This document shows positions 3,779 through 62,389 of a stretch of DNA of 64,000 nucleotides, piece by piece. The DNA is from a virus (Duplodnaviria; Heunggongvirae; Uroviricota; Caudoviricetes): IMG/VR virus record IMGVR_UViG_3300010882_000009; one strand, given 5' to 3'. Position 1 is the first letter of the stretch, and every line of letters starts with the position of its first letter. A program made the translations under genes and the position numbers. The notes beneath the pieces are model-generated. The model did not search any database, was not told the DNA's origin, and worked only from the letters and a program-made list of their open reading frames with translations.

Positions 3779-3803
3779 AATCAAATTGTTATTCTATTAA
3801 AAT
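3779..3803 (+). promoter_or_regulatory. intergenic palindrome motif copy (variant left half AATCAAA)
   Basis: AATCAAA-ttgtta-TTCTATT-AAAAT. Confidence 0.6.
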
Positions 3804-5289: not shown

Positions 5290-5706
5290 ATGGATTATAA
5301 AACAATATCAGATAATTACAAAAACTCTCATCCGCGGCTATATGTATTAGCTCATTGTGATACTAACCAGCAAAATACATTTATTCAAGATGCAAGAGAC
5401 AATGGGTATTTCGCAGAGCCAATAAGGGCAAATTGTTTTGAACTTAAATTAGATAACAGGAATATGATATTTGACTGTGATGGTAGTAAGGTTGATATAA
5501 ATGAATACGCATTTGGTAAAACACAATTTACAAAAATAACGCCAAGATTATCAATAACATCAATGTCTCCAGATGATGCAGCATATTACTATAATTGGTG
5601 TCCACTTGAGTGTATGTTAGACCATTCAAAGATTCCATTAAATAACATGCATGATGCTAGGATATACAGTAATGCTTGTATATATGATGATGCTAGTGTA
5701 TTTTAA
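5290..5706 (+). CDS. hypothetical protein (138 aa)
   Basis: RBS aaaaggagtg. Confidence 0.55.
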   Translation: MDYKTISDNYKNSHPRLYVLAHCDTNQQNTFIQDARDNGYFAEPIRANCFELKLDNRNMIFDCDGSKVDINEYAFGKTQFTKITPRLSITSMSPDDAAYYYNWCPLECMLDHSKIPLNNMHDARIYSNACIYDDASVF

Positions 5707-5729
5707 TAGAAGACAAATTCTATTAAAAT
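5705..5729 (+). promoter_or_regulatory. intergenic palindrome motif copy
   Basis: AATAGAA-gacaaa-TTCTATT-AAAAT. Confidence 0.65.
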
Positions 5730-6360: not shown

Positions 6361-6366
6361 TATTTA

Positions 6367-6391
6367 AATAGAATACAGATTCTATTAAAAT
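6367..6391 (+). promoter_or_regulatory. intergenic palindrome motif copy
   Basis: AATAGAA-tacaga-TTCTATT-AAAAT. Confidence 0.65.
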
Positions 6392-7353: not shown

Positions 7354-7932
7354 ATGAATAATAAAATGTCAGAAGGAACAATTGCTTACTATATAAACAA
7401 TATAATAGCAGAGACGGAAGCAGAAATTAATTCAAGCAAAGAATATACTGATAAAGCCAAAACAGAAACAGAAAAGTTAAATTATATTCGATATATTGTT
7501 GGGATGCAATTTGTTATTGACAAGCTTAAAGAATTAACTTTTAAAGACAGGTTTCCGTATGCTCCAATGCACGATATTTATAATGGTGATAAAAAATATT
7601 ATGAAATCTCATGGAATTATTACAATCCACGTATTGTTGAATGTGAATCATGTGACACAGAACAAGATGCTATTGATACGCTTATTGATATTATTGAAAA
7701 AGAATGCCATGAAAAAGATATACCAATTGAAGCATTTTTCATTCCATATGACAGAATAAAAGACGAATTGAACGACGATTATGATTATAACAAAGTAAAT
7801 TCAGATATGTATATACAAGGTGGCAATGCAGGATTATATCTTGATACAAATGGGTTATTGCAAATAAAAGAGGTAACGGCTGATGAAGCAAGAATTATTA
7901 ACTATAATATTAAAAATGCATATCCATTCTAG
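7354..7932 (+). CDS. hypothetical protein
   Basis: RBS ggagtgagtg before ATG. Confidence 0.55.
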   Translation: MNNKMSEGTIAYYINNIIAETEAEINSSKEYTDKAKTETEKLNYIRYIVGMQFVIDKLKELTFKDRFPYAPMHDIYNGDKKYYEISWNYYNPRIVECESCDTEQDAIDTLIDIIEKECHEKDIPIEAFFIPYDRIKDELNDDYDYNKVNSDMYIQGGNAGLYLDTNGLLQIKEVTADEARIINYNIKNAYPF

Positions 7933-7954
7933 TTTTTATAAATGAGGTGATGTT

Positions 7955-8245
7955 TTGATAAAACCGATGTTTGGTTCAAACAATCAAGGATACTTTTCAG
8001 TTGTTCAAATGAAAACATTTTTAGATGAACAACAGAAAAAAGGAATAGAAATTAAAAACATATGGTATAACTATGGGCTTCTTAGTATTTTAAGCGAATT
8101 TAAGATAACAGCAAAAGGATTATCTGGATATGATGCTCTCAGTAATTATTGCTACTTTAGCGATTCAAATAATATTAAATTTTGGAAAGCTAATATCATG
8201 CAATATTTTGCTGATGGGATTAATACAAATGCTGTGTCAGCATAA
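7955..8245 (+). CDS. hypothetical protein (TTG start)
   Basis: RBS atgaggtg 6 nt before TTG. Confidence 0.45.
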   Translation: MIKPMFGSNNQGYFSVVQMKTFLDEQQKKGIEIKNIWYNYGLLSILSEFKITAKGLSGYDALSNYCYFSDSNNIKFWKANIMQYFADGINTNAVSA

Positions 8246-8392
8246 TATACAACAGCGACAATATATTATAGAGTGCAATTTTTTGTTGTGCTGCATGCCG
8301 GATATTTGGTATGAATATGGCGGCATGTTGTAGAGCAAAAAACATACAGATACAGGTGTGTGGATATTGTTCTTTAGTTTTTCATAAGTATC

Positions 8393-8419
8393 GCCGGGGC
8401 TGACTGATCCAGTCCCGGC
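8393..8419. other. GC-rich hairpin (10-bp stem, 7-nt loop) in 225-bp ORF-free gap
   Basis: GCCGGGGCTG-actgatc-CAGTCCCGGC; no U-tract on either strand. Confidence 0.5.
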
Positions 8420-8469
8420 ACCTCCCTAAAATAATTCTCCAAGTAAATAATAATGAAAAGGATGAGTAA

Positions 8470-8652
8470 ATGATGAATTTGGAAAAATATTCAGATAATC
8501 AAATTATAAAAATTGTTAATGATAAATTAAAAACTGGCGAATGGAATTGTGACAAGTTCAGAGAATTTGCTGAATATTTTAATACGTATAAGACATGCAG
8601 AGATTATATTCAAGCACAACTACAAAATATTAACGATAGGAAAGATTTATAA
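8470..8652 (+). CDS. hypothetical protein (60 aa)
   Basis: RBS aaaaggatgag. Confidence 0.5.
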   Translation: MMNLEKYSDNQIIKIVNDKLKTGEWNCDKFREFAEYFNTYKTCRDYIQAQLQNINDRKDL

Positions 8653-8682
8653 ACAAAGTTACTGGTAATGTCGTTAAATTTG

Positions 8683-8707
8683 TATAGAACGATTATTTGA
8701 TTAAAAT
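8683..8707 (+). promoter_or_regulatory. motif copy (variant right half)
   Basis: tATAGAA-cgatta-TTTGATT-AAAAT. Confidence 0.55.
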
Positions 8708-8727
8708 ATAATAATAGGGGTGATTAA

Positions 8728-8838
8728 TTGAGATGCATTATTTCTACTTTGCTTGTTTTGGCTTTCTTTTTTGCTGTGTTGTTTAATATTAAAATAGATT
8801 TATCTTGTATACTTGGAACTTTTAATAAATATAATTAA
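8728..8838 (+). CDS. possible 36-aa hydrophobic peptide (TTG start)
   Basis: RBS aataggggtga 5 nt before TTG; below track size cut-off. Confidence 0.25.
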   Translation: MRCIISTLLVLAFFFAVLFNIKIDLSCILGTFNKYN

Positions 8839-8859
8839 ATATAGAAAAGGTGATTGAAA

Positions 8860-9288
8860 ATGATAGATAAATTAAATTTTTTTAGTCTTGATATTGGTGA
8901 AGTAAAAAATATTCTTAAAGAATATATGAATAAAACAAATACTCATAAAGAATTTATTAGTTTTATTCCAGAAATAGCAAGTGATTATCAAGCAAAAATT
9001 GAGCATGAACTATTAAGAACTAAAATGTGTGCGAACGCACTTCTTGTTTGCAATGATATTGAAAAGTGTGTTACAAAAGATAATTGGTTTATATGGGCAA
9101 GATTTTTAGATGTAACAGAAAATGGGATATTTAATAGTATAAATATGTTGCAACCAAATGTTATACTTAATAAGATTATTGAAATAGTTTCAGATAATAA
9201 TATTATAGACAATATTGATATTTGTGGAGAACGTTACAATTTATTGCAACTTATTTGTAAATTAAAACATAAATATTTAAATGATTAA
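8860..9288 (+). CDS. hypothetical protein
   Basis: RBS aaaaggtga 8 nt before ATG. Confidence 0.55.
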   Translation: MIDKLNFFSLDIGEVKNILKEYMNKTNTHKEFISFIPEIASDYQAKIEHELLRTKMCANALLVCNDIEKCVTKDNWFIWARFLDVTENGIFNSINMLQPNVILNKIIEIVSDNNIIDNIDICGERYNLLQLICKLKHKYLND

Positions 9289-20839: not shown

Positions 20840-21172
20840 ATGTATTATAATGAAACAAAAGTTAGACAAATATCTATTTCTGAACTTGCCTATAAAATTG
20901 CAGCAATAAGTTCATATGACGTTACTATTGATTTTTGGGAAGATATTGATTTTGCAGGACGTGGTATAAATGTTTATTCGGCTAAATTTATTCATGAATT
21001 TGATTCAGATATGCTTATAATTAATATATGGGGCGGCGGCTCATCAACAGTTATTGACTTTTCGCCGGGAGAAACATGCGATGATGAAATTATCAGATTA
21101 ATTGATTGTTTAAATAAATATGCTGATTATATTGGTACTGAATGTTTTTATATTCCTGTTAATGAACTCTAA
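20840..21172 (+). CDS. hypothetical protein
   Basis: RBS gaaaggata. Confidence 0.55.
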   Translation: MYYNETKVRQISISELAYKIAAISSYDVTIDFWEDIDFAGRGINVYSAKFIHEFDSDMLIINIWGGGSSTVIDFSPGETCDDEIIRLIDCLNKYADYIGTECFYIPVNEL

Positions 21173-21217
21173 GTTTGAATAAAATAAACATTCTATAGGA
21201 ATTGGGTGATGTGATAT

Positions 21218-21997
21218 ATGATTAAAGTTAAACGAGATACTACTGCTGATCTGTTCAATGAAGTATTAAGTCTTGTAAAGAATAATGGGCATTATAAAAA
21301 AGCAAGAGATATTATTGAATATGAAACAAGTTATAAGCCTCCAATTGAATTATCAAATTATGAATTTGATTTTAATGCCGTTGTAAATTTTGGTACAAAT
21401 GAAGGGGTATATATTAACGTATTTTTATCTGGTAACTATCTTGAATCAGACAACAACCCAAGAAAAATATATGATATTGGAACATTTTTAACTCTAAGAT
21501 CTGATTTAGAAGCAATGCAAATTATGGGAGAGCTTTGTGGTTCATTAACTTATTATGCTAGTAAATATATTAATGAAAATATTGATAGATATACACCAAC
21601 AAAAGAATTTGAATTGGAAATAAGAAAGAAAAATGCTAGTGATGCACGTAATCAATATATTTCTTCATTGTCTAAAATTAAAGCAAAAGATGAAGATTGT
21701 GGCGAATGCAAAATATGCTACTATAATTTATGCCATGGAAAACAGTATGGTTGTAATGCTGGAATTAATAGGTTTATAATGAAAGAAGTTGACAGCTATT
21801 TAAATAGATTTGATAGTGATAATAATTATTTTTGTATATTAGATAATTCGTACAATAAGAATTGCGATACATTTTCACATTATGTTACTATTCTAACTGG
21901 GCATGACTACTGTGACTTAGATATTTATAAGTCTATAGCTTATGTTTATATTTGGTTATGTACGAGAAAACAAGATTTTGAACATTTAAAACTCTAA
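21218..21997 (+). CDS. hypothetical Cys-rich protein; C-terminus formed by a duplicated segment
   Basis: RBS ttgggtgatg; contains repeat copy 1 and ends inside copy 2. Confidence 0.55.
   Translation: MIKVKRDTTADLFNEVLSLVKNNGHYKKARDIIEYETSYKPPIELSNYEFDFNAVVNFGTNEGVYINVFLSGNYLESDNNPRKIYDIGTFLTLRSDLEAMQIMGELCGSLTYYASKYINENIDRYTPTKEFELEIRKKNASDARNQYISSLSKIKAKDEDCGECKICYYNLCHGKQYGCNAGINRFIMKEVDSYLNRFDSDNNYFCILDNSYNKNCDTFSHYVTILTGHDYCDLDIYKSIAYVYIWLCTRKQDFEHLKL
21481..21600 (+). repeat. direct repeat copy 1 (about 120 bp, about 88% identical to 21981-22100)
   Basis: aacatttttaactctaagatctgatttagaagcaatgcaaattatggg... Confidence 0.85.
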
Positions 21998-22100
21998 GAT
22001 CTGATTTAGAAACAATGCAAATTATTGGTGAACTTTGTGGCTCATTAACATATTATGCTTATCAATATGTTAATGCAAATATTGATAGATATAAACCAAA
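21981..22100 (+). repeat. direct repeat copy 2; encodes start-less paralogous peptide in another frame
   Basis: translates TFKTLRSDLETMQIIGELCGSLTYYAYQYVNANIDRYKPNLI after a TGA. Confidence 0.85.
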
Positions 22101-22126
22101 TTTAATATAGAAACGAGGTGTCGTAA

Positions 22127-22360
22127 GTGAATTATATTCAAGAGTTAATGGACTCAAAGAATATTAATACAGAAGAAAGGTTTATGCTTATTGATAAAAA
22201 AGATGGATATATTTTTGACAAACTCTATTATTTTAATGAAGATTATATATTAATAATTGATCATAGCAAAGATGGATTGTTTATAGGAATTGAAAGTATT
22301 GCAAGTATTGAAATTTACAGCCAGTTAATGTCTGGAATGCTTGAAGTGAAAACAATATAG
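22127..22360 (+). CDS. hypothetical protein (GTG start)
   Basis: RBS aacgaggtg. Confidence 0.45.
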   Translation: MNYIQELMDSKNINTEERFMLIDKKDGYIFDKLYYFNEDYILIIDHSKDGLFIGIESIASIEIYSQLMSGMLEVKTI

Positions 22361-22374
22361 ATAAAAAATATTTT

Positions 22375-22394
22375 AATAGAATCAACGATTGATG
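22375..22394 (+). promoter_or_regulatory. motif copy (variant right half)
   Basis: AATAGAA-tcaacg-ATTGATG. Confidence 0.4.
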
Positions 22395-22420
22395 CAAAGT
22401 AAAAAAGGAGGCGATGAAAA

Positions 22421-22774
22421 TTGTACAATAAGAACAATCCCAATTTTTGGGATATCGAAAACGAATATGATGCAACTCATTATTTACATTCCATGATTGC
22501 CAACATATCAAGTATTGATGACAACAGTGAAAGAAACAAGTTATTTACAATATACAACTCACGAAAATACGAGCTGAGAGAGAGGGGGATGTATCCAGCG
22601 GAAACAGTAGAAGAACAGCTAACAGAGATAAGCGTCAGTCAAGTTGAATTTGACGTGGTTGAGCGAGTAGTAGACGACTACTGTATCCATTGTCCATACC
22701 TATTCCCGGATGAAGATGACCCGTGCAATGGCTGTCACGTAAGAGGTATTATCGACTCGATGAAAGTTAGATAG
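22421..22774 (+). CDS. hypothetical protein with C-terminal Cys cluster (TTG start), GC-richer
   Basis: RBS aaaaggaggcg; CIHCP..CNGCH. Confidence 0.45.
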   Translation: MYNKNNPNFWDIENEYDATHYLHSMIANISSIDDNSERNKLFTIYNSRKYELRERGMYPAETVEEQLTEISVSQVEFDVVERVVDDYCIHCPYLFPDEDDPCNGCHVRGIIDSMKVR

Positions 22775-22779
22775 GTTTG

Positions 22780-22804
22780 AATCAAACCAACATTCTATTA
22801 AAAT
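22780..22804 (+). promoter_or_regulatory. motif copy (left AATCAAA)
   Basis: AATCAAA-ccaaca-TTCTATT-AAAAT. Confidence 0.6.
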
Positions 22805-22836
22805 AAAATTATGATTTATAAGGAGATATAAATAAA

Positions 22837-24093
22837 ATGAAAAATAATACATATAGAATTACCAATAATGATATAAAAGGAATGGAAGTACTCGAAATTA
22901 GCTATAAAATATTCAATAATGATTGGACTACTCAATATGGGAACTATTGCTATGTAGATGAAAATGGTAATGTAGAAGGCTCTATTCATAAAGTTGATGG
23001 CGATATTAATGCTTGTAACTGGGGCCTACATTCAAGTAAAAACCCATTAGATTGCTTAAAATTCTATCCAATGGTTCAGTGGAATAAATATGCAATTGTA
23101 AAATCTTATGGCAAAGCAAAAGAACATTCAGATGGAGATAAAATAGTTTCGCAAATATTGAAAATTGATAAAGTTTTATCATGGAGCGAATTCCTTAACG
23201 AAATAAAAAATTATAATAATGGTAATACCGATATGCATGGCTCTGGCATTAGTGATGGCTCTGGCATTAGTGATGGCTATGGCATTAGGAATGGCTATGG
23301 CATTAGGAATGGCTATGGTATTAGGAATGGCTCTGGCATTAGGAATGGCTATGGTATTAGTGATGGCTATGGCATTAGGAATGGCTATGGTATTAGTGAT
23401 GGCTATGGCATTAGGAATGGCTATGGTATTAGTTATGGCTATGGCATTAGTGATGGCTATGGCATTAGGAATGGCTCTGGCATTAGTGATGGCTCTGGCA
23501 TTATGAATAGCTCTGGCATTAGGAATGGCTATGGCATTAGTGATGGCTATGGCATTAGTGATGGCTATGGTATTAGTTATGGCTATGGCATTAGTGATGG
23601 CTATGGCATTAGTTATGGCTATGGCATTAGTGATGGCTATGGCATTAGGAATGGCTCTGGCATTAGTGATGGCTATGGCATTAGGAATGGCTCTGGCATT
23701 AGTGATGGCTATGGCATTAATTATGGCTATGGCATAAACAATTCAAAATACTGTTATAAATGCGAAGGTATATCAAGATGTATAATGTGTTATGATTTTA
23801 CGGGGAAGTTATCTGTGTTTAATAAGCCTATAACAGAAACACGGTTTAATGAAATAAATAATACAATAGAAGAATTATCGGATGGCTGGTATCCTAAGTT
23901 TAATAATGCTTTTGATTTATATAGTCAAAACAATAGCAAATGGGAATCAACACCAGTAACGATGATAAAAGAAAAATCAATAAAAGAAGCATATACAGAT
24001 ATGCCGAAAGAATTAATTGAGTATATCAAGTCTATTAATGAATATGATGAAAATATATTTAATATAATTATTGGATTAAAGGATGGGGAATAA
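22837..24093 (+). CDS. tandem hexapeptide-repeat protein, 28 x G[YS]GI[SR][DN]
   Basis: period-6 aa, aliphatic every 6th residue; N-terminus resembles that of 5779-6360; RBS taaggaga. Confidence 0.6.
   Translation: MKNNTYRITNNDIKGMEVLEISYKIFNNDWTTQYGNYCYVDENGNVEGSIHKVDGDINACNWGLHSSKNPLDCLKFYPMVQWNKYAIVKSYGKAKEHSDGDKIVSQILKIDKVLSWSEFLNEIKNYNNGNTDMHGSGISDGSGISDGYGIRNGYGIRNGYGIRNGSGIRNGYGISDGYGIRNGYGISDGYGIRNGYGISYGYGISDGYGIRNGSGISDGSGIMNSSGIRNGYGISDGYGISDGYGISYGYGISDGYGISYGYGISDGYGIRNGSGISDGYGIRNGSGISDGYGINYGYGINNSKYCYKCEGISRCIMCYDFTGKLSVFNKPITETRFNEINNTIEELSDGWYPKFNNAFDLYSQNNSKWESTPVTMIKEKSIKEAYTDMPKELIEYIKSINEYDENIFNIIIGLKDGE
23239..23742. repeat. 28 tandem 18-bp units ggctatggcattagtgat (coding)
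   Basis: units differ only at 3 codon positions (tat/tct, agt/agg, gat/aat). Confidence 0.9.
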
Positions 24094-24566
24094 TGTTAAA
24101 AATTATTGATGGCGATATTTTTGAATCTAATGCAGATATAATAGCTCATCAGGTAAATTGTCAAGGGGTAATGGGCGGTGGTATCGCGCTTCAAGTAAAA
24201 AGAAAATATCCAAATGTATTTAAGGAATATAATAAATATTGCAACAGATATAAAGGCGTTTCGTTTAATTTGTTAGGTAATATATATACTGTAGGCATAC
24301 AATCTCAATATCCTGATTTGCCAAGACGAAGATATATATGCAATTTATTTGGACAAGATGAATTTGGTGGCAATAGATGTCACACAGATTATGATGCGTT
24401 AAGGTTATGTTTAAAGAAATTAAATATTATAGCAATAGGAAATACTGTAGCAATACCATATATGATGAGTTGTGCATTAGCAGGTGGCGATTGGGATATC
24501 GTATCAAAAATGATTGAAGAAACACTTACTGATTGTGATATAACATTATATAGATATAGCGTTTAA
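24093..24566 (+). CDS. macro domain protein, TARG1/OARD1/DarG-like ADP-ribose hydrolase fold
   Basis: GDIF..ADIIAHQVNCQGVMGGGIALQVKRKYP and ..GGDWDIVSKMIEE..DCDITLY match TARG1 architecture; ATG overlaps upstream stop (taATG). Confidence 0.7.
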   Translation: MLKIIDGDIFESNADIIAHQVNCQGVMGGGIALQVKRKYPNVFKEYNKYCNRYKGVSFNLLGNIYTVGIQSQYPDLPRRRYICNLFGQDEFGGNRCHTDYDALRLCLKKLNIIAIGNTVAIPYMMSCALAGGDWDIVSKMIEETLTDCDITLYRYSV

Positions 24567-24571
24567 CTTTG

Positions 24572-24596
24572 AATAGAAGTACGATTCTATTAAAAT
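24572..24596 (+). promoter_or_regulatory. motif copy
   Basis: AATAGAA-gtacga-TTCTATT-AAAAT. Confidence 0.65.
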
Positions 24597-24621
24597 TTTA
24601 TTGAGGTGTGGATGGTTAAAT

Positions 24622-25107
24622 ATGAACAATATATTATTTGATGCTGATTCTAATAATATAGTATTATGCAATGAGTGCAATTATGAGTTTAAATACGTAA
24701 ACTTGAAATGTTATGGATATGATTGGTATGCGGTATGTCCAATATGTGAATGTTATATAGATGTTAAAGTTGATGATATATATAATGATTATCTACATGG
24801 ACGTTGCGATGAATATGCATTAAAAAAATATCAAGATGGCGATATATTTATCATTGTAACTGAATATGATGAAGATATTAATCGTATTTGTTTGATGCAT
24901 TGTTTCTTAAAGAGAGAAGATAAATATATTGATGCAAGAGGAATATTAAATACTATTAATGATGTATTAGATGAATTTAATATAAATGATGATGATATTA
25001 ATCGCTATGATGAATATGATATTTATAAGTGTGATAGTATAAATGAATTTAAAAAGTTATACAAATATTTAGGATGGAAACATTTAAAATTTAATAAAAT
25101 ATTATAG
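24622..25107 (+). CDS. hypothetical Cys-rich protein
   Basis: RBS tgaggtgtgg; CNEC..CPICEC. Confidence 0.5.
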   Translation: MNNILFDADSNNIVLCNECNYEFKYVNLKCYGYDWYAVCPICECYIDVKVDDIYNDYLHGRCDEYALKKYQDGDIFIIVTEYDEDINRICLMHCFLKREDKYIDARGILNTINDVLDEFNINDDDINRYDEYDIYKCDSINEFKKLYKYLGWKHLKFNKIL

Positions 25108-25126
25108 TATATTGGAGGAATTTAAT

Positions 25127-25354
25127 ATGAAACTATTTAGTGTTAATGTTCAATGGGGAGACGATACAGGAGATACAATTCATACTTTGATTGCCGAATG
25201 CAATTCATGGCATAATTTGCCTATAGGATATTCAGATGAACAGATATTCTTCTATGGTATGAATGAAAATAATGTGCGAAATGCCGTAGCCAGTGGAGAA
25301 TTATATGAGGATGAATGGAGAATATTAGAACTTTATGAAGTAATTGAATATTAA
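25127..25354 (+). CDS. hypothetical protein
   Basis: RBS ttggagga. Confidence 0.5.
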   Translation: MKLFSVNVQWGDDTGDTIHTLIAECNSWHNLPIGYSDEQIFFYGMNENNVRNAVASGELYEDEWRILELYEVIEY

Positions 25355-25380
25355 TAAGCAAATAATAGGAGCTGATAATT

Positions 25381-25518
25381 ATGCCTAGTTTTTTGAAGTG
25401 GTTATTAGTAGCGTTATTAATTGAGCCATTAACACTACTTTTTCTTTGGAATGTGATTATTGTTGCTATGTTTGACACATCAAAACAACATTTGGTGAAT
25501 GGTTTTGGATTTCTGTAG
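25381..25518 (+). CDS. possible 45-aa membrane peptide
   Basis: RBS taggagctg; hydrophobic. Confidence 0.35.
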   Translation: MPSFLKWLLVALLIEPLTLLFLWNVIIVAMFDTSKQHLVNGFGFL

Positions 25519-25560
25519 TAGTTAATTCTATATATATAATTGTAAACGGAGCAGAATTTA

Positions 25561-25585
25561 AATAGAAAATACATTTTATTAAAAA
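25561..25585 (+). promoter_or_regulatory. motif copy
   Basis: AATAGAA-aataca-TTTTATT-AAAAA. Confidence 0.55.
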
Positions 25586-25604
25586 ATATTAGGAGGCAAC
25601 GAAT

Positions 25605-25859
25605 ATGACTGAAACAGAATATGCTAAAGAAACAAGTCGTGAAAAAATTATTGAACGCATGAAAGGTATAAATAAAGAATTGCTCGAAATTTTAGTAGAC
25701 ATTGCATTTGAAAATATTGATGGAAAACAGTTTGACTATGTAAATAGTTATCAACTAGCAGACGCTACAACAAGCATACATAATATTATATTAAATATTA
25801 ATCATATTGTATTTCAATGCGAAGATGATGACAACGAATATGATAGTAAGTTTGAATAG
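25605..25859 (+). CDS. hypothetical protein
   Basis: RBS taggaggc. Confidence 0.55.
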   Translation: MTETEYAKETSREKIIERMKGINKELLEILVDIAFENIDGKQFDYVNSYQLADATTSIHNIILNINHIVFQCEDDDNEYDSKFE

Positions 25860-25879
25860 AAAGTATATTCTATTAAAAT
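25855..25879 (+). promoter_or_regulatory. motif copy
   Basis: AATAGAA-agtata-TTCTATT-AAAAT; overlaps upstream stop. Confidence 0.65.
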
Positions 25880-25892
25880 TTGGAGGGACAAT

Positions 25893-26132
25893 ATGAATAA
25901 AAAAGCATGGCGCAAACTTATAAAGGATTACACAAATAAAGACAACTGCGACTTCATGAAAAAGCATAAACTCACAATACATAATATGAATGTTTTTTGT
26001 ATGTGTGCCAACGAATATGAAAAAGCAGGATCAACAAGAACATGCATAAGCGATGTAGCTAAACTGTTTGAATATTTTGGGTTTGATGTTGCGTTTGAAG
26101 ATGGGAATAGAATCAATTATGCAATAACATAA
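25893..26132 (+). CDS. hypothetical protein
   Basis: RBS ttggaggga. Confidence 0.55.
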   Translation: MNKKAWRKLIKDYTNKDNCDFMKKHKLTIHNMNVFCMCANEYEKAGSTRTCISDVAKLFEYFGFDVAFEDGNRINYAIT

Positions 26133-31168: not shown

Positions 31169-31501
31169 ATGCAAGTCAATAAGAACTTATTATTATGCAT
31201 AACATCAATTTTAGGAATGGTTGTAACATTATTTTCATTTGTTTTATTTAGAAATATTATTAATAGCGTTGTTATTGCAATAAAGACTGATGTTAACTTC
31301 TCATATTTTCAAGGTAATGTTGGAATGTTGGTAGTAGAACTTAGTAATAATATTAATATTATCAAGGCTTCAAATTTAATATTACATTTTATAATATTAT
31401 TACTAATTACAACTTGTGCATTGAATAATTGGAATTTGTATTTAAAAAACAAAAATATTAAAAGAGTAACTGGAGGATTTGAAAATGATAAAAATAATTA
31501 A
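31169..31501 (+). CDS. small membrane protein (NfeD-like partner position)
   Basis: 2-3 hydrophobic helices; overlaps downstream SPFH gene by 17 nt. Confidence 0.5.
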   Translation: MQVNKNLLLCITSILGMVVTLFSFVLFRNIINSVVIAIKTDVNFSYFQGNVGMLVVELSNNINIIKASNLILHFIILLLITTCALNNWNLYLKNKNIKRVTGGFENDKNN

Positions 31502-32534
31502 TCTTAAAAAAGCAATGGTGTTAGTGTTTATGTCAGTTATCTTATTGTCTCAAACCGGATGTTTTGTAAGGCCATATAATAAGCCTTCTGTAGTACAAGT
31601 TGAAACAAATGAATCCGCATTTCTAGTTGATATGCGTTCTGATGCAGCAGTAACGACGGATTCTATGACACTTATTCAACGCAAAGATATTATAATAGAT
31701 GGTTATTGGATACAGACAGGAAGGCTCCCAATAAGTGGGCATTATCGTCCTACACAACGTGTATTAGTTGTTCCACGCCGCCCAGTTGAGGTTCAATGGA
31801 ATGGGAACAATGGGAATCCTGTAGTTCGTGCTGTTAGCAGTGAATCAGTTGGATTTCAAGTCCCATTAGTATTGAATGCAACAATTCAAACAGATGAAGA
31901 CGCATTAAAATATTTAAACTGGTTTCGCTCAAATAATAATATTGATGGCGGTGCAATGAACAATGTTAGGGAAGAAGCAGAGGCATTAGAAATTACACTA
32001 AACAGGGTAGTGTTTCCAGTTATTAATAATGTACTATCTAGTATGTTTTTAGAAAAGACTATAATTGAGGCTGAATCACACAGAGTAGAATTTGTAAAAC
32101 AAGCTTTTGAAGCTGCAAAAGAAGAGGCGTATAAATATGGAATAACACTTTTAATTCTTTCGTCTACAGATGGTCTTTTGTATGATGATTCAGAATTCCA
32201 GAATAGAATAAATCAATTGGCTGTCGCAAAGATGCGTGAAAATGTTCTAGAACAAGAAAATGCTAATGCTTTAGCTGAACAACAGGTTGCTATGACTAAC
32301 GCTAACACTGCTGCTGAAGTTGCAAAAATACAAGATTTAACATTAGACATCCAACGTCGCCAAATGGAAATTGAGGGGCAACGTAAGTTATATGAAGCAG
32401 AGGCCGATGCGATACGTTCAAGAGGTAAAAACCAATGGCCCACAACTCTTATTGTGCAAGATTTAGATGCACTTGGGAACCTTGGTATAATACCTGTAAT
32501 AAATAACAATCAACAACAAACAACACAACCATAA
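31485..32534 (+). CDS. SPFH/band-7 (stomatin-prohibitin-flotillin) family lipoprotein
   Basis: signal peptide plus lipobox LSQTGC; SPFH-like core and Ala/Glu-rich coiled-coil C-term; locally much higher GC. Confidence 0.6.
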   Translation: MIKIINLKKAMVLVFMSVILLSQTGCFVRPYNKPSVVQVETNESAFLVDMRSDAAVTTDSMTLIQRKDIIIDGYWIQTGRLPISGHYRPTQRVLVVPRRPVEVQWNGNNGNPVVRAVSSESVGFQVPLVLNATIQTDEDALKYLNWFRSNNNIDGGAMNNVREEAEALEITLNRVVFPVINNVLSSMFLEKTIIEAESHRVEFVKQAFEAAKEEAYKYGITLLILSSTDGLLYDDSEFQNRINQLAVAKMRENVLEQENANALAEQQVAMTNANTAAEVAKIQDLTLDIQRRQMEIEGQRKLYEAEADAIRSRGKNQWPTTLIVQDLDALGNLGIIPVINNNQQQTTQP

Positions 32535-50457: not shown

Positions 50458-50465
50458 AATATTTT

Positions 50466-50490
50466 AATAGAATATTTCTTCTATTAAAAT
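50466..50490 (+). promoter_or_regulatory. motif copy
   Basis: AATAGAA-tatttc-TTCTATT-AAAAT. Confidence 0.65.
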
Positions 50491-57336: not shown

Positions 57337-58533
57337 ATGATTGATAAATATGCACAAGTACAAAATATATTAAAAGTGCTTGGTATAAATGCAATTGTAA
57401 TTGGAGATATACAAGGTCGTGTAACAACAACATACGAACTTCATATGGTAGACGGCGAAAAATCGGCAAAACTAAAAAGAGCTAAAGAAGATATACGTAT
57501 AAGGTTGAAAGCGGAAACTGTACAAATTGTGCAGATGGCTAATAATTCAATTGGAATAGAAGTTTCTAATAAATCTAATGAGATATTGAGAATTGGAGAT
57601 ATTATAAGATCTTCAGAATACAAAAGCTCAACAGCTCCGCTAAAGTTTGCAATTGGAGAAAGTCAATGCGGGGAAAAAATATATGGAAGCCTACCGGAGT
57701 TAAGAAACATATTAATCGCTGGGGCATCAGGTTCTGGCAAGTCTGTATTTATAAATGTATTAATATCAAGTTTAATAATGGAACCAGTAAAAGAATTACG
57801 GCTTGTATTATTAGACCCAAAGAAAGTGGAATTAACACCTTATGAAAATATTCCACATCTATTGGCCCCAGTTATAACAGATGAAAAAAAAGCAGAAATA
57901 ATGCTAGAATGGCTTTGCGAAGAAACAAATAGAAGATATGAATTATTAAATCAGATAGCAAAGCTAAATAATATTCCTATAAGAAATATAGATAGATACA
58001 ATGAGATATTAGAAAAGAATAATATGAATGACAAAAAGTTATATAGGATAGTAGTTATAATTGATGAATTATCTCAGCTTATAATGTCATCATCAAAAAA
58101 AGTAGAAGATGCAATAATTAAAATATCTCAGCTAAGTAGAGCTGCTGGGATTCATTTAATAGTAGCAACACAAAGACCATCTGCTGATATTATAACTTCC
58201 CGCATAAAAGATAACTTGCAGACTAAAATAGTATTTGCAGTAGATAAACCACAAAGTTCTATGGTTGCACTAGGTAGGACAGGTGCTGAATCATTACTTG
58301 GAAAGGGTGATATGCTATTTAAAAGAGAAAATGATATGAATCCTATGAGGATACAAGGGGCATATATCAGCGATGATGAAGTAGAAAGAGTAATTAATTA
58401 TTTCAGAAGTAAAAATATTTATCCTGTATTTGATAAAAGTATTATTGATGCACTGGAAGGAAAGCATGGGAATAATAGTAATGAGTTTCTAAGTAATATT
58501 TTTAGTGGATTAAGTAATAATGGTATATATTAG
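57337..58533 (+). CDS. FtsK/SpoIIIE-family DNA translocase ATPase (motor domain)
   Basis: Walker A GASGSGKS, Walker B VVIIDELSQL, ATQRPS, FtsK-like N-terminal beta-region; RBS aaaggcggg. Confidence 0.8.
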   Translation: MIDKYAQVQNILKVLGINAIVIGDIQGRVTTTYELHMVDGEKSAKLKRAKEDIRIRLKAETVQIVQMANNSIGIEVSNKSNEILRIGDIIRSSEYKSSTAPLKFAIGESQCGEKIYGSLPELRNILIAGASGSGKSVFINVLISSLIMEPVKELRLVLLDPKKVELTPYENIPHLLAPVITDEKKAEIMLEWLCEETNRRYELLNQIAKLNNIPIRNIDRYNEILEKNNMNDKKLYRIVVIIDELSQLIMSSSKKVEDAIIKISQLSRAAGIHLIVATQRPSADIITSRIKDNLQTKIVFAVDKPQSSMVALGRTGAESLLGKGDMLFKRENDMNPMRIQGAYISDDEVERVINYFRSKNIYPVFDKSIIDALEGKHGNNSNEFLSNIFSGLSNNGIY

Positions 58534-59053: not shown

Positions 59054-60109
59054 GTGGGTAAACAAGTTAGGACATTAATGTTTAACAGGAATTTGAAAGA
59101 AGAGTACATTGATTTTGAAAAAAAGGAAAGCAATAAAATTGCATTGGAAAACTATTTTAAACGACTATACGATGCAGAGGTTTCAACTGGCGATAATGGT
59201 ACAGATATAATATTTATGACTTACGATGAATTAAAAATAGCATTTTTATCACTAGGGATAAGACGAGATTTATCAATATCTCATTTTTTAGCATCAATGA
59301 GAGGATATGCATCGTGGGCTTTGTTAGTAAAGGGGATTACAAAAGACAAAAAGGCTTTTGACATAATGACTGTAGATGCATTAAAAGAAAAAAGCACAAT
59401 CACTAGTAAGATGCTAGGGGATTATGAACAGCTTAAAACTATTATTTTTAATGGACTTGATACAGTTAATTATCCTAATGCATCTATGCGAAATAGTTTA
59501 GTATTACATTTGGTTTTTGACGGGTTAACATTCAATGATATTGTAGATTTAAAAAAATCCGATCTTGATTTAAATACAAATTCAATAACGCTGGGGGGTG
59601 GATATATTGTAAAGTTATCTGACGAGACAGTTGATTTGTGGCTTAGATTTCAAGATGTTGATGGAATAGAAAAGAAAAATGCACAGGCGGAAAGATCAAC
59701 AAAATCAACAACAGAAGAATATATAATGATTCCTCTAATAGATAACGACTACTTAATACGACCACAATTAAGGCAAAATGCAAGAACACAGCAAACACAG
59801 ATTCCGTTATCTTCATTAAATCGTATTATACGTGTTATATATAAGACTTCAAAATCAAGCGAACAGCTATCTCCTTCTACTGTTCGCATATCAGGTGTAT
59901 TTCATAGATTATATCAGTGTGAGCTAAAAGGAGAAATAAATGGTGTAAAAATTACATCTGATATTGATAATTATGAATATGAAATTGCAAAATATCTTGC
60001 ATATCATCTTCGTGTTGAGTATAATGACAAAGGAGAGTTGATGTTAAAATTATTGAGATGGAGGAAAGATTATAGCGATTGGAAGTATGCATTTGGTTAC
60101 ACATCTTAA
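59054..60109 (+). CDS. divergent tyrosine-recombinase-like protein (GTG start), call tentative
   Basis: candidate box I R in SMRNSLVLHLVFDGLTFNDIVDLKKSDLDL, K in GYIVKLSDE, box II-like STVRISGVFHRLY, C-terminal Tyr candidates; RBS aaaggatggtg. Confidence 0.4.
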   Translation: MGKQVRTLMFNRNLKEEYIDFEKKESNKIALENYFKRLYDAEVSTGDNGTDIIFMTYDELKIAFLSLGIRRDLSISHFLASMRGYASWALLVKGITKDKKAFDIMTVDALKEKSTITSKMLGDYEQLKTIIFNGLDTVNYPNASMRNSLVLHLVFDGLTFNDIVDLKKSDLDLNTNSITLGGGYIVKLSDETVDLWLRFQDVDGIEKKNAQAERSTKSTTEEYIMIPLIDNDYLIRPQLRQNARTQQTQIPLSSLNRIIRVIYKTSKSSEQLSPSTVRISGVFHRLYQCELKGEINGVKITSDIDNYEYEIAKYLAYHLRVEYNDKGELMLKLLRWRKDYSDWKYAFGYTS

Positions 60110-60143: not shown

Positions 60144-61244
60144 ATGCCAGCAGCAAGAACAAAAGCAAAAGCAAAAGAAAAATCAAATATGATAGTGCCC
60201 GAGCATGTTGTAAAGCCAGTATATGTAGTAATAGAACCTGAGTCAAGCAAGGTTGATATGAGTGTATCAAGTGTTGCAAACAAATTTAAAAACAGAACTA
60301 TTATTACAGATATTTTAGAACAACGTGGTGATGTTTGGCATCCTATTGTTAAAGGAATGTTTATTCGCGCCTTAATAAGAGGTGTCCAAATACCACCATT
60401 GTACTTCAACAAAGCTGAAAAGACTAGCGAAGCGTTAGACGGACAGCAGAGGATTAGAACAATCTCAGGATTTATTCATGGAGAATTTTCTATCCATAAA
60501 GATGTTCCACCTATACGTGTAGAAAAAGATGGAGTTGCTGAAGATTTTGTAATAGCACGACTATATTTTAAAGACTTACCTACTGATATACAGGATAAGT
60601 TAAAATCAACTGTATTATTATCTTTTACATTTTTTAATATGACACATGAAGAGAAGGTTAATTTTTTCATTGAAATAAATAGCAACAAACCTATATCCCC
60701 TGCTGACTTTTCCCGTATAAGAATATGCAGTAGACATATATTCATTAAACTTGCAAAACTTCCGGGGATAGCCAGTGTATTAAAGGATAGTAAGAAAAAG
60801 AAGTTGGAAGACGAAGATATTCCGGCAGATGCAGCAATAATGGCATACGCTAGTAACCATTCATTGATGAACGATAAAAACGGAAGACATATTCTTTGGA
60901 CGCAAGAAATAACTCCTGAGCAGGAAGAAGAAATGACAAAAGCACTTGACTATATGAAGACATTCTTTGTTATTATGGCAGACATGAAAAAAATGTCTAA
61001 TAAAATAAAGAATAGAAAAACGCACATGGTTTCATTAATGTACATGGCTATAATTGCTATTCAGAGATGTATAAGCGCAGAAGACTTCGCAGAGAGGGTT
61101 AAAGGATTTTTTAATACAAATGATGACCGGGCAAGTCACGATGAAGGATACAACAATGCATGTTCAGCGGCAAGCGCAAAATTATTAAGCGTATCTATAC
61201 GCAGAGATATATTGCGAAATGTAATTTATAGAGATATTGGATAA
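60144..61244 (+). CDS. DUF262 (ParB/Srx-fold) protein with DGQQR motif
   Basis: EQRGDVWHP...LDGQQRIRTISGF; RBS gaagggagatg. Confidence 0.6.
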   Translation: MPAARTKAKAKEKSNMIVPEHVVKPVYVVIEPESSKVDMSVSSVANKFKNRTIITDILEQRGDVWHPIVKGMFIRALIRGVQIPPLYFNKAEKTSEALDGQQRIRTISGFIHGEFSIHKDVPPIRVEKDGVAEDFVIARLYFKDLPTDIQDKLKSTVLLSFTFFNMTHEEKVNFFIEINSNKPISPADFSRIRICSRHIFIKLAKLPGIASVLKDSKKKKLEDEDIPADAAIMAYASNHSLMNDKNGRHILWTQEITPEQEEEMTKALDYMKTFFVIMADMKKMSNKIKNRKTHMVSLMYMAIIAIQRCISAEDFAERVKGFFNTNDDRASHDEGYNNACSAASAKLLSVSIRRDILRNVIYRDIG

Positions 61245-62268: not shown

Positions 62269-62364
62269 TATGGCGGCGAATAGATATACTATAATTATGC
62301 TTTATAGGCATAAATAATTCATATAGATAGTATGATATCATACCGCAAAGGCATAAAATATTTT

Positions 62365-62389
62365 AATAGAAGTGCAGTTCTATTAAAAT
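62365..62389 (+). promoter_or_regulatory. motif copy
   Basis: AATAGAA-gtgcag-TTCTATT-AAAAT. Confidence 0.65.

Follow-up and report, generated by a model that had tools for sequence, protein, structure and literature searches.

Why would a phage-like element translationally couple a long repeat protein to a macro domain? The question is raised by two overlapping genes at 22837-24566 in a 64,000-nt stretch of DNA from a Caudoviricetes record of IMG/VR (IMGVR_UViG_3300010882_000009); the whole stretch is called the window in the following. Gene 1 encodes a 418-aa protein with an N-terminal DUF7666 domain (the head), an array of hexapeptides and a C-terminal domain (the C-domain), while gene 2 encodes a 157-aa macro domain protein. 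An earlier reading of the bare sequence (the original prediction) took the macro domain for a candidate eraser aimed at ADP-ribosylation-based host defence. Given the predicted transferase-like head of gene 1 and the recurrence of the pairing, the reading shifts from such a host-aimed eraser to an eraser that comes with its own writer. That is, we tentatively regard genes 1 and 2 as a writer-eraser pair for ADP-ribosylation, with a logic like that of DarT-DarG, carried by a large mobile element whose host is a low-GC gut bacterium. This is the reading we lean to, while stopping short of calling it probable.

The gene pair

The following features describe the locus; positions are those of the window.

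22837..24093, + strand: gene 1, repeat protein of 418 aa from the open reading frame (ORF) list, with DUF7666 head, 28 hexapeptides and conserved C-domain
22837..23235, + strand: N-domain of gene 1 (aa 1-133), with DUF7666 at aa 22-121 and the core residues Y23-K24, Y39 and C60-x2-G63-L-H65
23239..23742, + strand: hexapeptide array of gene 1 (aa 135-302), 28 units G-[YS]-G-I-[SR]-[DNY] encoded by 18-bp DNA repeats
23743..24090, + strand: C-domain of gene 1 (aa 303-418), final solenoid turns with C-x2-C-x5-C-x2-C, then a helical domain
22820..22825, + strand: Shine-Dalgarno-like AAGGAG, 11 nt 5' of the gene 1 ATG, read from the sequence
24078..24083, + strand: Shine-Dalgarno-like AAAGGA within the end of gene 1, 9 nt 5' of the macro ATG, read from the sequence
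24091..24095, + strand: TAATG junction of the gene 1 TAA (24091-24093) and the gene 2 ATG (24093-24095)
24093..24566, + strand: gene 2, 157-aa stand-alone ALC1-like macro of the 'Gln type', with N22 at 24156-24158 and Q88 at 24354-24356

The stop codon of gene 1 thus overlaps the macro start by one shared base, as had been described. Within the window, which has ~29% G+C and nearly all of its ORFs on the + strand, overlapping neighbours make up 15 of 121 adjacent gene pairs, i.e., they are a minority feature, yet not rare.

Recurrence of the pairing

Among the IMG/VR loci of the gene 1 family with downstream sequence, a macro gene follows in 1/62 (L007). The early miss of the pair in IMG/VR goes back to a sample of the best-scoring relatives, for which a C-domain of the window type had been demanded. 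A first conclusion that the pair is not conserved was withdrawn; genome and metagenome contigs then gave many pairs. For contigs of bacterial genome bins, the macro gene is found immediately downstream of the gene 1 homologue in 8/28 loci, and over all loci with complete C-domain and downstream sequence this holds for 10/84. These other pairs are joined by overlaps of 8 nt (ATGATTAG/ATGATTAA) or 14 nt, by TAATG, or with 2-5 nt between the genes. Thus, the genes overlap or abut although the paired proteins are only 26-50% identical to those of the window. In a tree of head and C-domain, the macro-linked members fall into at least four lineages that are interleaved with unpaired ones.

The macro domains themselves form two clades. 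Clade A (HQVNCQGVMG, N-L-F-[GA]-Q, C-x-[RL]-[GA]-G-G-D-W) comprises the macro of the window and most stand-alone phage macros, while clade B (N-x-F-S-Q, G-C-G-I-A-[NK]-G-D) holds every other DUF7666-linked macro. A search with clade B added 130 loci, and the following counts are based on 38 non-identical clade-B macros. Directly upstream of 30/38 we find an ORF with strong tandem repeats, with a detectable DUF7666 head in 16. The upstream ORF is cut by the contig start in 14 cases, 11 of which still show repeats. For clade A, an upstream repeat or DUF7666 ORF is observed in 1/101 loci, namely the window itself. The coupling, which had been called unusual and unexplained, is therefore recurrent, as seen both from the 10/84 family loci and from the 30/38 clade-B macros.

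Upstream of clade-B macros, five partner architectures can be distinguished.

Architecture 1: head, hexapeptide repeats and C-domain (window type)
Architecture 2: head, NTGDW pentapeptides (Pfam Pentapeptide_2, 1e-36) and a diverged C-domain
Architecture 3: head, 9-residue SKVATSGNY repeats and a different C-domain
Architecture 4: small N-domain, 8-residue ENSSVVAR repeats and a C-terminal DUF7666-like domain (Pfam 4e-4 to 5e-4; hhalign 1.5e-3)
Architecture 5: classical A(D/N)LXX pentapeptides (PF00805, 9e-35) and a C-terminal DUF5758 (5e-18)

DUF5758 shares the motif F-x-Y-x-x-G-K-T...C-x2-G-I-H-F-F with DUF7666 (hhalign E 5e-4). What all five architectures have in common is a DUF7666-like domain joined to a short-repeat rod, with a DarG-like macro encoded next to it downstream.

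A locus to compare with the window is L186. Its C-domain is 50% identical to that of the window, its repeats are of the GYGIS type and its junction is the same TAATG; on the other hand, its macro is a clade-B one and only 32% identical to the clade-A macro of the window. Since the same slot holds clade B in one locus and clade A in the other, the macro appears to have been replaced by a paralogue, and from this replacement we argue for selection for a macro at that position. Judged from these sequences, the swap is hard to explain unless a macro is needed beside gene 1.

A predicted transferase-like fold of the DUF7666 head

Two independent AlphaFold2 models give the N-domain a predicted local distance difference test (pLDDT) score of ~90 or more. 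When these structure predictions are compared with known folds, structures of the transferase type account for ~48 of the 60 best hits with P0129 and for 32/60 with the window protein. The matches have modest scores and comprise PARP15 (5.8), PARP4 (5.6), PARP13 (5.3) and SRO1 (5.1) as well as PARP3, PARP1 and PARP10, further Tpt1 (4.7), Arr (4.7), AcrIF11 (4.3) and DarT (~3). Rhs toxins (TreX, TreTu), the diphtheria, pertussis, LT and CARDS toxins, RES toxins, Tne2 and MbcT are matched too.

Among 52 diverse heads, no variation is seen at K24, C60 and H65 and hardly any at Y23, F26, Y39, G48, G63, N83, A86, V88 and K102. A near-universal motif is C-x2-G-[LFI]-H-[FIM]-[SC], which contains H65. 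We take the part G-[LFI]-H65-[FIM]-[SC] to resemble the H-x-[ST] NAD+ motif of ADP-ribosyltransferases, i.e., it could be the respective strand. A conserved acidic residue could not be assigned in the head; where the consensus K-V-E-A-Y has its Glu, the window protein carries a Lys (K89). Taken together, the models make it quite likely that the DUF7666 head has an ADP-ribosyltransferase-like fold.

The BC2332 protein forms SCOP family d.166.1.6 within the ADP-ribosylation superfamily (PMC3000352). For BC2332 itself, a toxin-like function is only predicted from local templates and an activity is not demonstrated (PMC3024214). With regard to this BC2332/PARP-type fold (SCOP d.166.1), the head shows no detectable sequence similarity and no assignable catalytic triad, and only ~85-90 residues superpose, at a root-mean-square deviation of ~3 Å.

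The macro domain belongs to the TARG1/DarG class

In the Pfam scan, gene 2 passes the Macro family (PF01661) narrowly, scoring 26.6 bits (cut-off 22) over aa 19-139. It further matches PHROG 335, which is annotated as 'phosphatase' (E 2.5e-44), and macro domains in the PDB. We searched a profile of 26 homologues against the PDB and obtained M. tuberculosis DarG (9e-20), BT1257 (2e-18), T. aquaticus DarG (1e-16), SCO6735 (6e-15), Poa1p (4e-14, with only the first ~110 positions aligned) and TARG1 (2e-10), while MacroD-type and viral macro domains reach only ~1e-3. This is also reflected in the PADLOC and NCBIfam results, since DarG is the top model for gene 2 in both (6e-22 and 3e-20, respectively). 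The NCBIfam match covers positions 2-146 of 338 and gives 72.7 bits compared to the equivalog cut-off of 250 bits. The original assignment of the 157-aa protein to the TARG1/DarG type is thereby borne out by the PDB profile search, PADLOC and NCBIfam.

The profile searches give a macro fold and the ADP-ribose-binding motifs are intact, i.e., N22, the G28-G-G-I-A32 loop and P122...C127...G131-G132-x-W134, such that the ligand-contacting residues expected for an ADP-ribose-binding macro are retained. Invariant in the family alignment are H19-Q-V-N22, G25, M27, G30, A32, N84, Q88, P122, C127 and W134, and G131 and G132 are kept in at least 90% of the members. Both ALC1-like loops, N-x(2)-G-V-M-G-x-G-[IV]-A and P...G-C-G...G-G-x-W, are present. 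The catalytic Lys and Asp equivalents, on the other hand, are absent. Q88 aligns with K80 of T. aquaticus DarG and K84 of TARG1 and is a Gln in 26/26 family members and in all phage loci examined. D125 of TARG1 aligns with A130, such that the Lys84-Asp125 dyad of TARG1 is missing; the TARG1 numbering used in this alignment is consistent with PMC9411070. The stretch N84-L-F-G-Q88 lines up with N-M-I-G-Q of SCO6735 and BT1257. With regard to overall identity, gene 2 reaches up to 59% to its nearest homologues and 36-55% to the 80 stand-alone phage macros examined.

SCO6735 also lacks the catalytic Lys and Asp, and mutation of its Gln85 abolishes all activity (PMC9411070). Nevertheless it strips DarT-made thymidine-ADP-ribose off DNA and rescues E. 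coli from DarT (PMC9411070). Since SCO6735 is active without these residues, their loss in gene 2 is no argument against hydrolase activity. By sequence, gene 2 is a macro of the TARG1/DarG (ALC1-like) class in the 'Gln' configuration of SCO6735 and BT1257.

A possible writer-eraser pair and its alternatives

If genes 1 and 2 are writer and eraser, the DUF7666 head would probably use NAD+ to modify a host or nucleic-acid target. The tandem-repeat rod, which changes fast in length and sequence, would hold the head away from the C-domain, and the latter would probably provide targeting or partner binding. Gene 2, presumably made from the same transcript via the overlapping stop and start, would take off the ADP-ribose mark. 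By analogy with DarT-DarG, it may thereby spare the DNA, RNA and proteins of the element itself from collateral modification, or limit the writer in time.

Several observations weigh against such a pair. About 88% of the gene 1 family have no macro neighbour, among them the three closest relatives of the window's gene 1; a writer, if the family is one, therefore generally needs no eraser. The clade of the window's macro is otherwise found without DUF7666 (0/80 loci of its relatives have DUF7666 upstream), and gene 2 could thus act independently. Several of the loci may come from related phages, such that the counts given above are not fully independent. For the head, a Foldseek search against the PDB gave nothing significant, and no sequence link between DUF7666 and transferase families was found, whether in Pfam (121 members, E<=5), by hmmsearch against the PDB (E<=10), in PADLOC or in NCBIfam, the last of which returned only a compositional 'serine-rich' hit for gene 1. 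Neither an H-Y-E nor an R-S-E nor an H-H-h triad is assignable in the head.

A serious rival, which we consider possible but distinctly less probable, is that the macro acts as an independent anti-defence eraser, i.e., that it strips host DarT-type marks in the manner of AdfM, while gene 1 is unrelated, e.g., a DNA-mimicking or anti-restriction rod or a scaffold that merely shares the operon within a region of accessory or early genes. A phage macro that defeats DarTG2 is documented with AdfM of PhiKZ (PMC13309987), and SCO6735-type Gln macros do strip DarT marks (PMC9411070). The macro clade of the window is widespread in phage contigs, with 382 IMG/VR matches and PHROG 335 besides the missing DUF7666 neighbours noted above, and most DUF7666 proteins are macro-less and are located among replication and early genes (methyltransferases, SSB, YopX, PAPS reductase). 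What such an independent eraser leaves unexplained is the pairing itself: the ~80% of clade-B macros with upstream repeat/DUF7666 partners, the five architectures, the conserved overlapping junctions, the exchange of the macro for a paralogue within one slot, and the transferase-like look of the partner's head.

Two further readings are less likely than both the writer-eraser pair and the AdfM-like eraser, and each of them strikes us as improbable. The pair could be a DarTG-like toxin-antitoxin or abortive infection system for maintenance or phage exclusion, with a self-directed writer as toxin and the repeats as its sensor. In M. tuberculosis, the locus is ordered with darT first and darG second, and a transferase-like gene that is followed by a translationally coupled macro shows just this order; DarG is moreover the top model for the macro, fast-evolving repeats are typical of conflict proteins, and GmrSD-like genes are also present in the window. 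However, a toxin should not stand without its antitoxin, as most family members would do, the bare 157-aa macro is devoid of the C-terminal toxin-binding domain of DarG, PADLOC gives no match for gene 1, and family members are located in the replication and early modules of phages. Alternatively, the pair might handle an NAD+-derived metabolite, with a Tpt1/KptA-like head that transfers a nucleic-acid phosphate to NAD+ and a Poa1p-like macro that dephosphorylates ADP-ribose-1''-phosphate. BC2332 and Tpt1 are neighbouring SCOP families (PMC3000352), the macro matches Poa1p in the PDB and PHROG 335 is a 'phosphatase', and a genuine Tpt1 gene lies beside one DUF7666 gene. That lone neighbour is anecdotal, though, and DarG, BT1257 and SCO6735 fit the macro better than Poa1p with its partial alignment; in addition, the head has no Tpt1 sequence motif (no hit of Pfam PTS_2-RNA), and the neighbouring genes that were examined included neither a cyclic phosphodiesterase nor an RNA ligase.

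Relation to known systems

DarTG resembles the window pair in that a transferase or transferase-like gene is followed by a translationally coupled macro, and the macro is nearest to that of DarG according to PDB, PADLOC and NCBIfam. In contrast to DarT, to which it has no sequence similarity by PADLOC, gene 1 carries long repeats and an extra C-domain. Gene 2 differs from DarG by the Gln in place of the catalytic Lys and by the absence of the C-terminal DarT-binding domain (full length ~330-400 aa), and no darT gene adjoins it at the window locus. Unlike DarTG, the module occurs on phage-like elements in replication and early regions, with most gene 1 relatives lacking a macro.

SCO6735 and BT1257 share with gene 2 the ALC1-like class, the N-x-x-x-Q motif with Gln at the position of the catalytic Lys, and the C-x-L-A-G-G loop. 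In a neighbour-joining tree, however, the phage and mobile-element macros group apart from them, and the first motif reads HQVNCQGVMGGG in gene 2 but H-x-C-N-D-x-G-G-W-G-K-G in SCO6735/BT1257. Furthermore, SCO6735 is a chromosomal orphan without a repeat-protein partner.

AdfM, i.e., gp104 of PhiKZ, is like gene 2 a stand-alone DarG-like phage macro of similar size, and the Asn is found in both (N23 in AdfM, N22 in gene 2). AdfM has kept the DarG-type Lys (FPTKDNW), though, and groups with DarG and not with the family of gene 2; BLASTP similarity between the two extends only over the first 49 residues, with 43% identity. A transferase-like partner is not reported for AdfM.

The repeat protein family

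PF24703 (DUF7666) is found in gene 1 at aa 22-121 with 64.1 bits against a cut-off of 27 and is matched by all 121 aligned family members. The 148 homologues of gene 1 have 253-481 aa, and PF24703 is present in all of the 120 listed. Gene 1 has further matches to PHROG 14105 and 4433, two families without an assigned function. The family has 491 IMG/VR matches, mainly from gut metagenomes, and some of the contigs are binned with genomes of Clostridia, Oscillospiraceae, Lachnospiraceae and Christensenellales. Taken by itself, the N-domain has matches in 320 clusters at 50% identity. Among the larger DUF7666 proteins, the only domain fusions seen are a second DUF7666, pentapeptide repeats and weak Lar/Ogr zinc-finger hits.

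The architecture of the family is constant, i.e., a head of ~130 aa, n hexapeptides with one aliphatic residue each and a C-domain of ~115 aa. Proteins of the family have 3-37 units (median 9), such that the 28 units of the window are among the highest, and the unit number accounts for protein length (r = 0.94, ~5.8 aa per unit). The unit sequence is lineage-specific (GYGISD, SNGVNW, GGNDIR) but homogenised inside each protein.

For the window, 28 units of 18 bp within the 418-aa ORF are confirmed by the ORF list, Tandem Repeats Finder and in-frame reading. Tandem Repeats Finder reports the array at 23237..23735 with 27.7 copies, 87% matches, no indels and a score of 709. Read in frame, the units are GYGIRN (8 times), GYGISD (7), GSGISD (5) and GYGISY (3), while the rest are single variants. 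The claim that the units vary at three codon positions holds, namely at codon 2 (Y 20, S 8), codon 5 (S 15, R 10) and codon 6 (D 12, N 12, Y 4). Free combination, which had been part of the same claim, does not: positions 5 and 6 are linked, with SD, RN and SY seen and SN and RD never. The array is therefore a mosaic in which two or three unit types are shuffled, an outcome to be expected if units recombine unequally or slip. ORFs that run across the array in other frames (23219-23506 and 23525-23737 on the + strand, MAMALVMAMALG... and MAMALV...; 23182-23742 on the - strand) are artefacts of the 18-bp periodicity and not genes.

With regard to structure, AlphaFold2 gives gene 1 a pLDDT of ~90 or above for the head and 87-98 for the C-domain, while residues 134-279 are below 50. 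In a shorter homologue with deep alignment coverage, only the last ~4 units are modelled confidently, as short strands of period 6. Pfam repeat families, Hexapep and Pentapeptide included, do not match the hexapeptide array of the window at E up to 5. The hexapeptide consensus of the left-handed beta-helix expects a small residue where the array has Tyr, and a canonical left-handed beta-helix was rejected given this Tyr and the missing Pfam hit. The rod is probably beta-solenoid-like. Gene 1 shares short tandem units with one aliphatic residue each with pentapeptide-repeat and beta-solenoid proteins, and in its sister architectures the place of the hexapeptides is taken by genuine pentapeptide repeats according to Pfam (PF00805 9e-35, PF01469 1e-36). 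It differs from them by a 6-residue unit outside the Pfam repeat families and by the low pLDDT over most of the array.

The C-domain has the conserved columns F328-N329, W351-x-P353, M389-P390 and L/I-P-E-Y-D-x-x-I-F. A zinc knuckle formed by its C-x2-C-x5-C-x2-C was rejected as a feature of the family, given that 2/4 Cys are conserved and that the macro-linked SNGVN clade has none of them.

Short-read assemblies break in the 18-bp array. For instance, an ENA contig that is identical over 11,068 bases begins at window position 23499, and several IMG/VR phage contigs of ~42 kb (e.g., UViG_3300045988_079075) have both of their ends within the homologous gene. Public databases therefore contain systematically truncated versions of this gene, and the protein collection did not return the 418-aa protein in its exact form.

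Intergenic motif and genomic context

Around the pair, the consensus scan of the window finds two copies of the same promoter-like site.

22777..22804, + strand: putative promoter-like TTGAAT-16-TAAAAT upstream of the pair (consensus match only), which holds ATTCTATTAAAAT at 22792-22804
24569..24596, + strand: next promoter-like TTGAAT-16-TAAAAT (consensus scan), directly 3' of the macro stop and before the gene at 24601

The 13-nt intergenic motif ATTCTATTAAAAT has 37 sites in the window with at most one mismatch compared to 2.3 expected (e.g., 3791-3803, 5700-5729, 6362-6391, 22370-22382, 22792-22804, 24584-24596, 50461-50490 and 62360-62389). It often forms an inverted pair 4-5 nt apart, i.e., a hairpin, and overlaps promoter-like -10 sites. 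In this it resembles a promoter or terminator signal of the element itself, repeated so as to bracket gene cassettes. Between genes 1 and 2, the consensus and motif scans of the window give neither a promoter-like site nor a motif copy. From the motif copies that bracket the pair, we infer that both genes form one putative transcription unit.

Unpaired family members lie next to phage genes for replication and early functions, namely SSB, PAPS reductase, actin-like proteins, YopX, G39P, DNA methyltransferases, ligase and polymerases. Other erasers (NADAR, ARH, Nudix) were not found beside macro-less members among the 25 commonest of 57 neighbour families. One macro-less DUF7666 gene directly adjoins a genuine Tpt1/KptA RNA 2'-phosphotransferase gene (PF01885, E 4e-48). 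A second recurrent downstream neighbour of DUF7666, unrelated to ADP-ribose, is a gene with a SleB-type cell-wall hydrolase region, which overlaps the DUF7666 gene in phage contigs of ~30-45 kb (L012, L013, L014, L020, L030, L040, L043, L047 and L165, in addition to L022). Its product has a hydrophobic N-terminal stretch; Hydrolase_2 is among the Pfam hits of the neighbours, and the respective region of L022 is 3D-domain-like by eye. In the 39-kb phage contig L007, which carries the pair, the ORF at 7892-8911 is DNA methyltransferase-like by eye, adjoins a ParB-like ORF and contains LQQLEY in frame ~9 times.

A megablast search with 21000-26000 of the window gave no match among the INPHARED phages. 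The window is part of a 225-kb contig and contains the following further genes.

749-1411: resolvase (MerR-resolvase), at the other end of the window
31479-32531: SPFH/Band 7 protein
57337-58530: FtsK/SpoIIIE-family ATPase
59054-60106: ORF with an MrpR N-terminal core-binding domain, read as a recombinase
60144-61241: GmrSD_N (type IV restriction-like) protein; a second GmrSD_N is found elsewhere in the window

A GNAT acetyltransferase, an HD_4 phosphohydrolase and several PHROG matches are also present, and one further window protein gives E 5e-12 against the beta-solenoid repeats of the YdcK type (PF18836). The 225-kb element may be a jumbo phage or a plasmid-like or integrative and conjugative element, a question that is raised by the FtsK, recombinase-like, GmrSD_N and resolvase genes.

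Implications

Phage macros and transferase-macro pairs as such are already known. Within the literature library that was searched, DUF7666 and DUF5758 returned nothing, and the transferase-like DUF7666/DUF5758 head, its fusion to interchangeable rods and its recurrent coupling to a Gln-type macro may thus be new. A broader proposal, which we put forward as speculative and rather doubtful, is that DUF7666 and DUF5758 are unrecognised ADP-ribosyltransferases of phages and mobile elements. Swappable repeat rods (of 5-, 6-, 8- or 9-residue units, DNA-mimicking pentapeptides included) would aim them at host nucleic acid or at DNA-binding defence proteins, a subset would carry a Gln-type macro as eraser, and the whole would be a phage-side counterpart of DarTG.

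ADP-ribosylation in the conflict of phages and bacteria is an emerging theme (DarTG, CmdTAC, AcrIF11, AdfM), for which few phage players are known. If DUF7666 is an active transferase, this would give several hundred uncharacterised protein clusters of gut phages a predicted chemistry, and the macro-linked subset would be a natural writer-eraser pair. The swap of macro clades within one slot offers a handle on the substrate specificity of Gln-type macros, whose mechanism is still debated. Finally, the repeat rods, which exchange both unit type and copy number between relatives, would then illustrate in a new case how a conflict protein can vary modularly in length and sequence.

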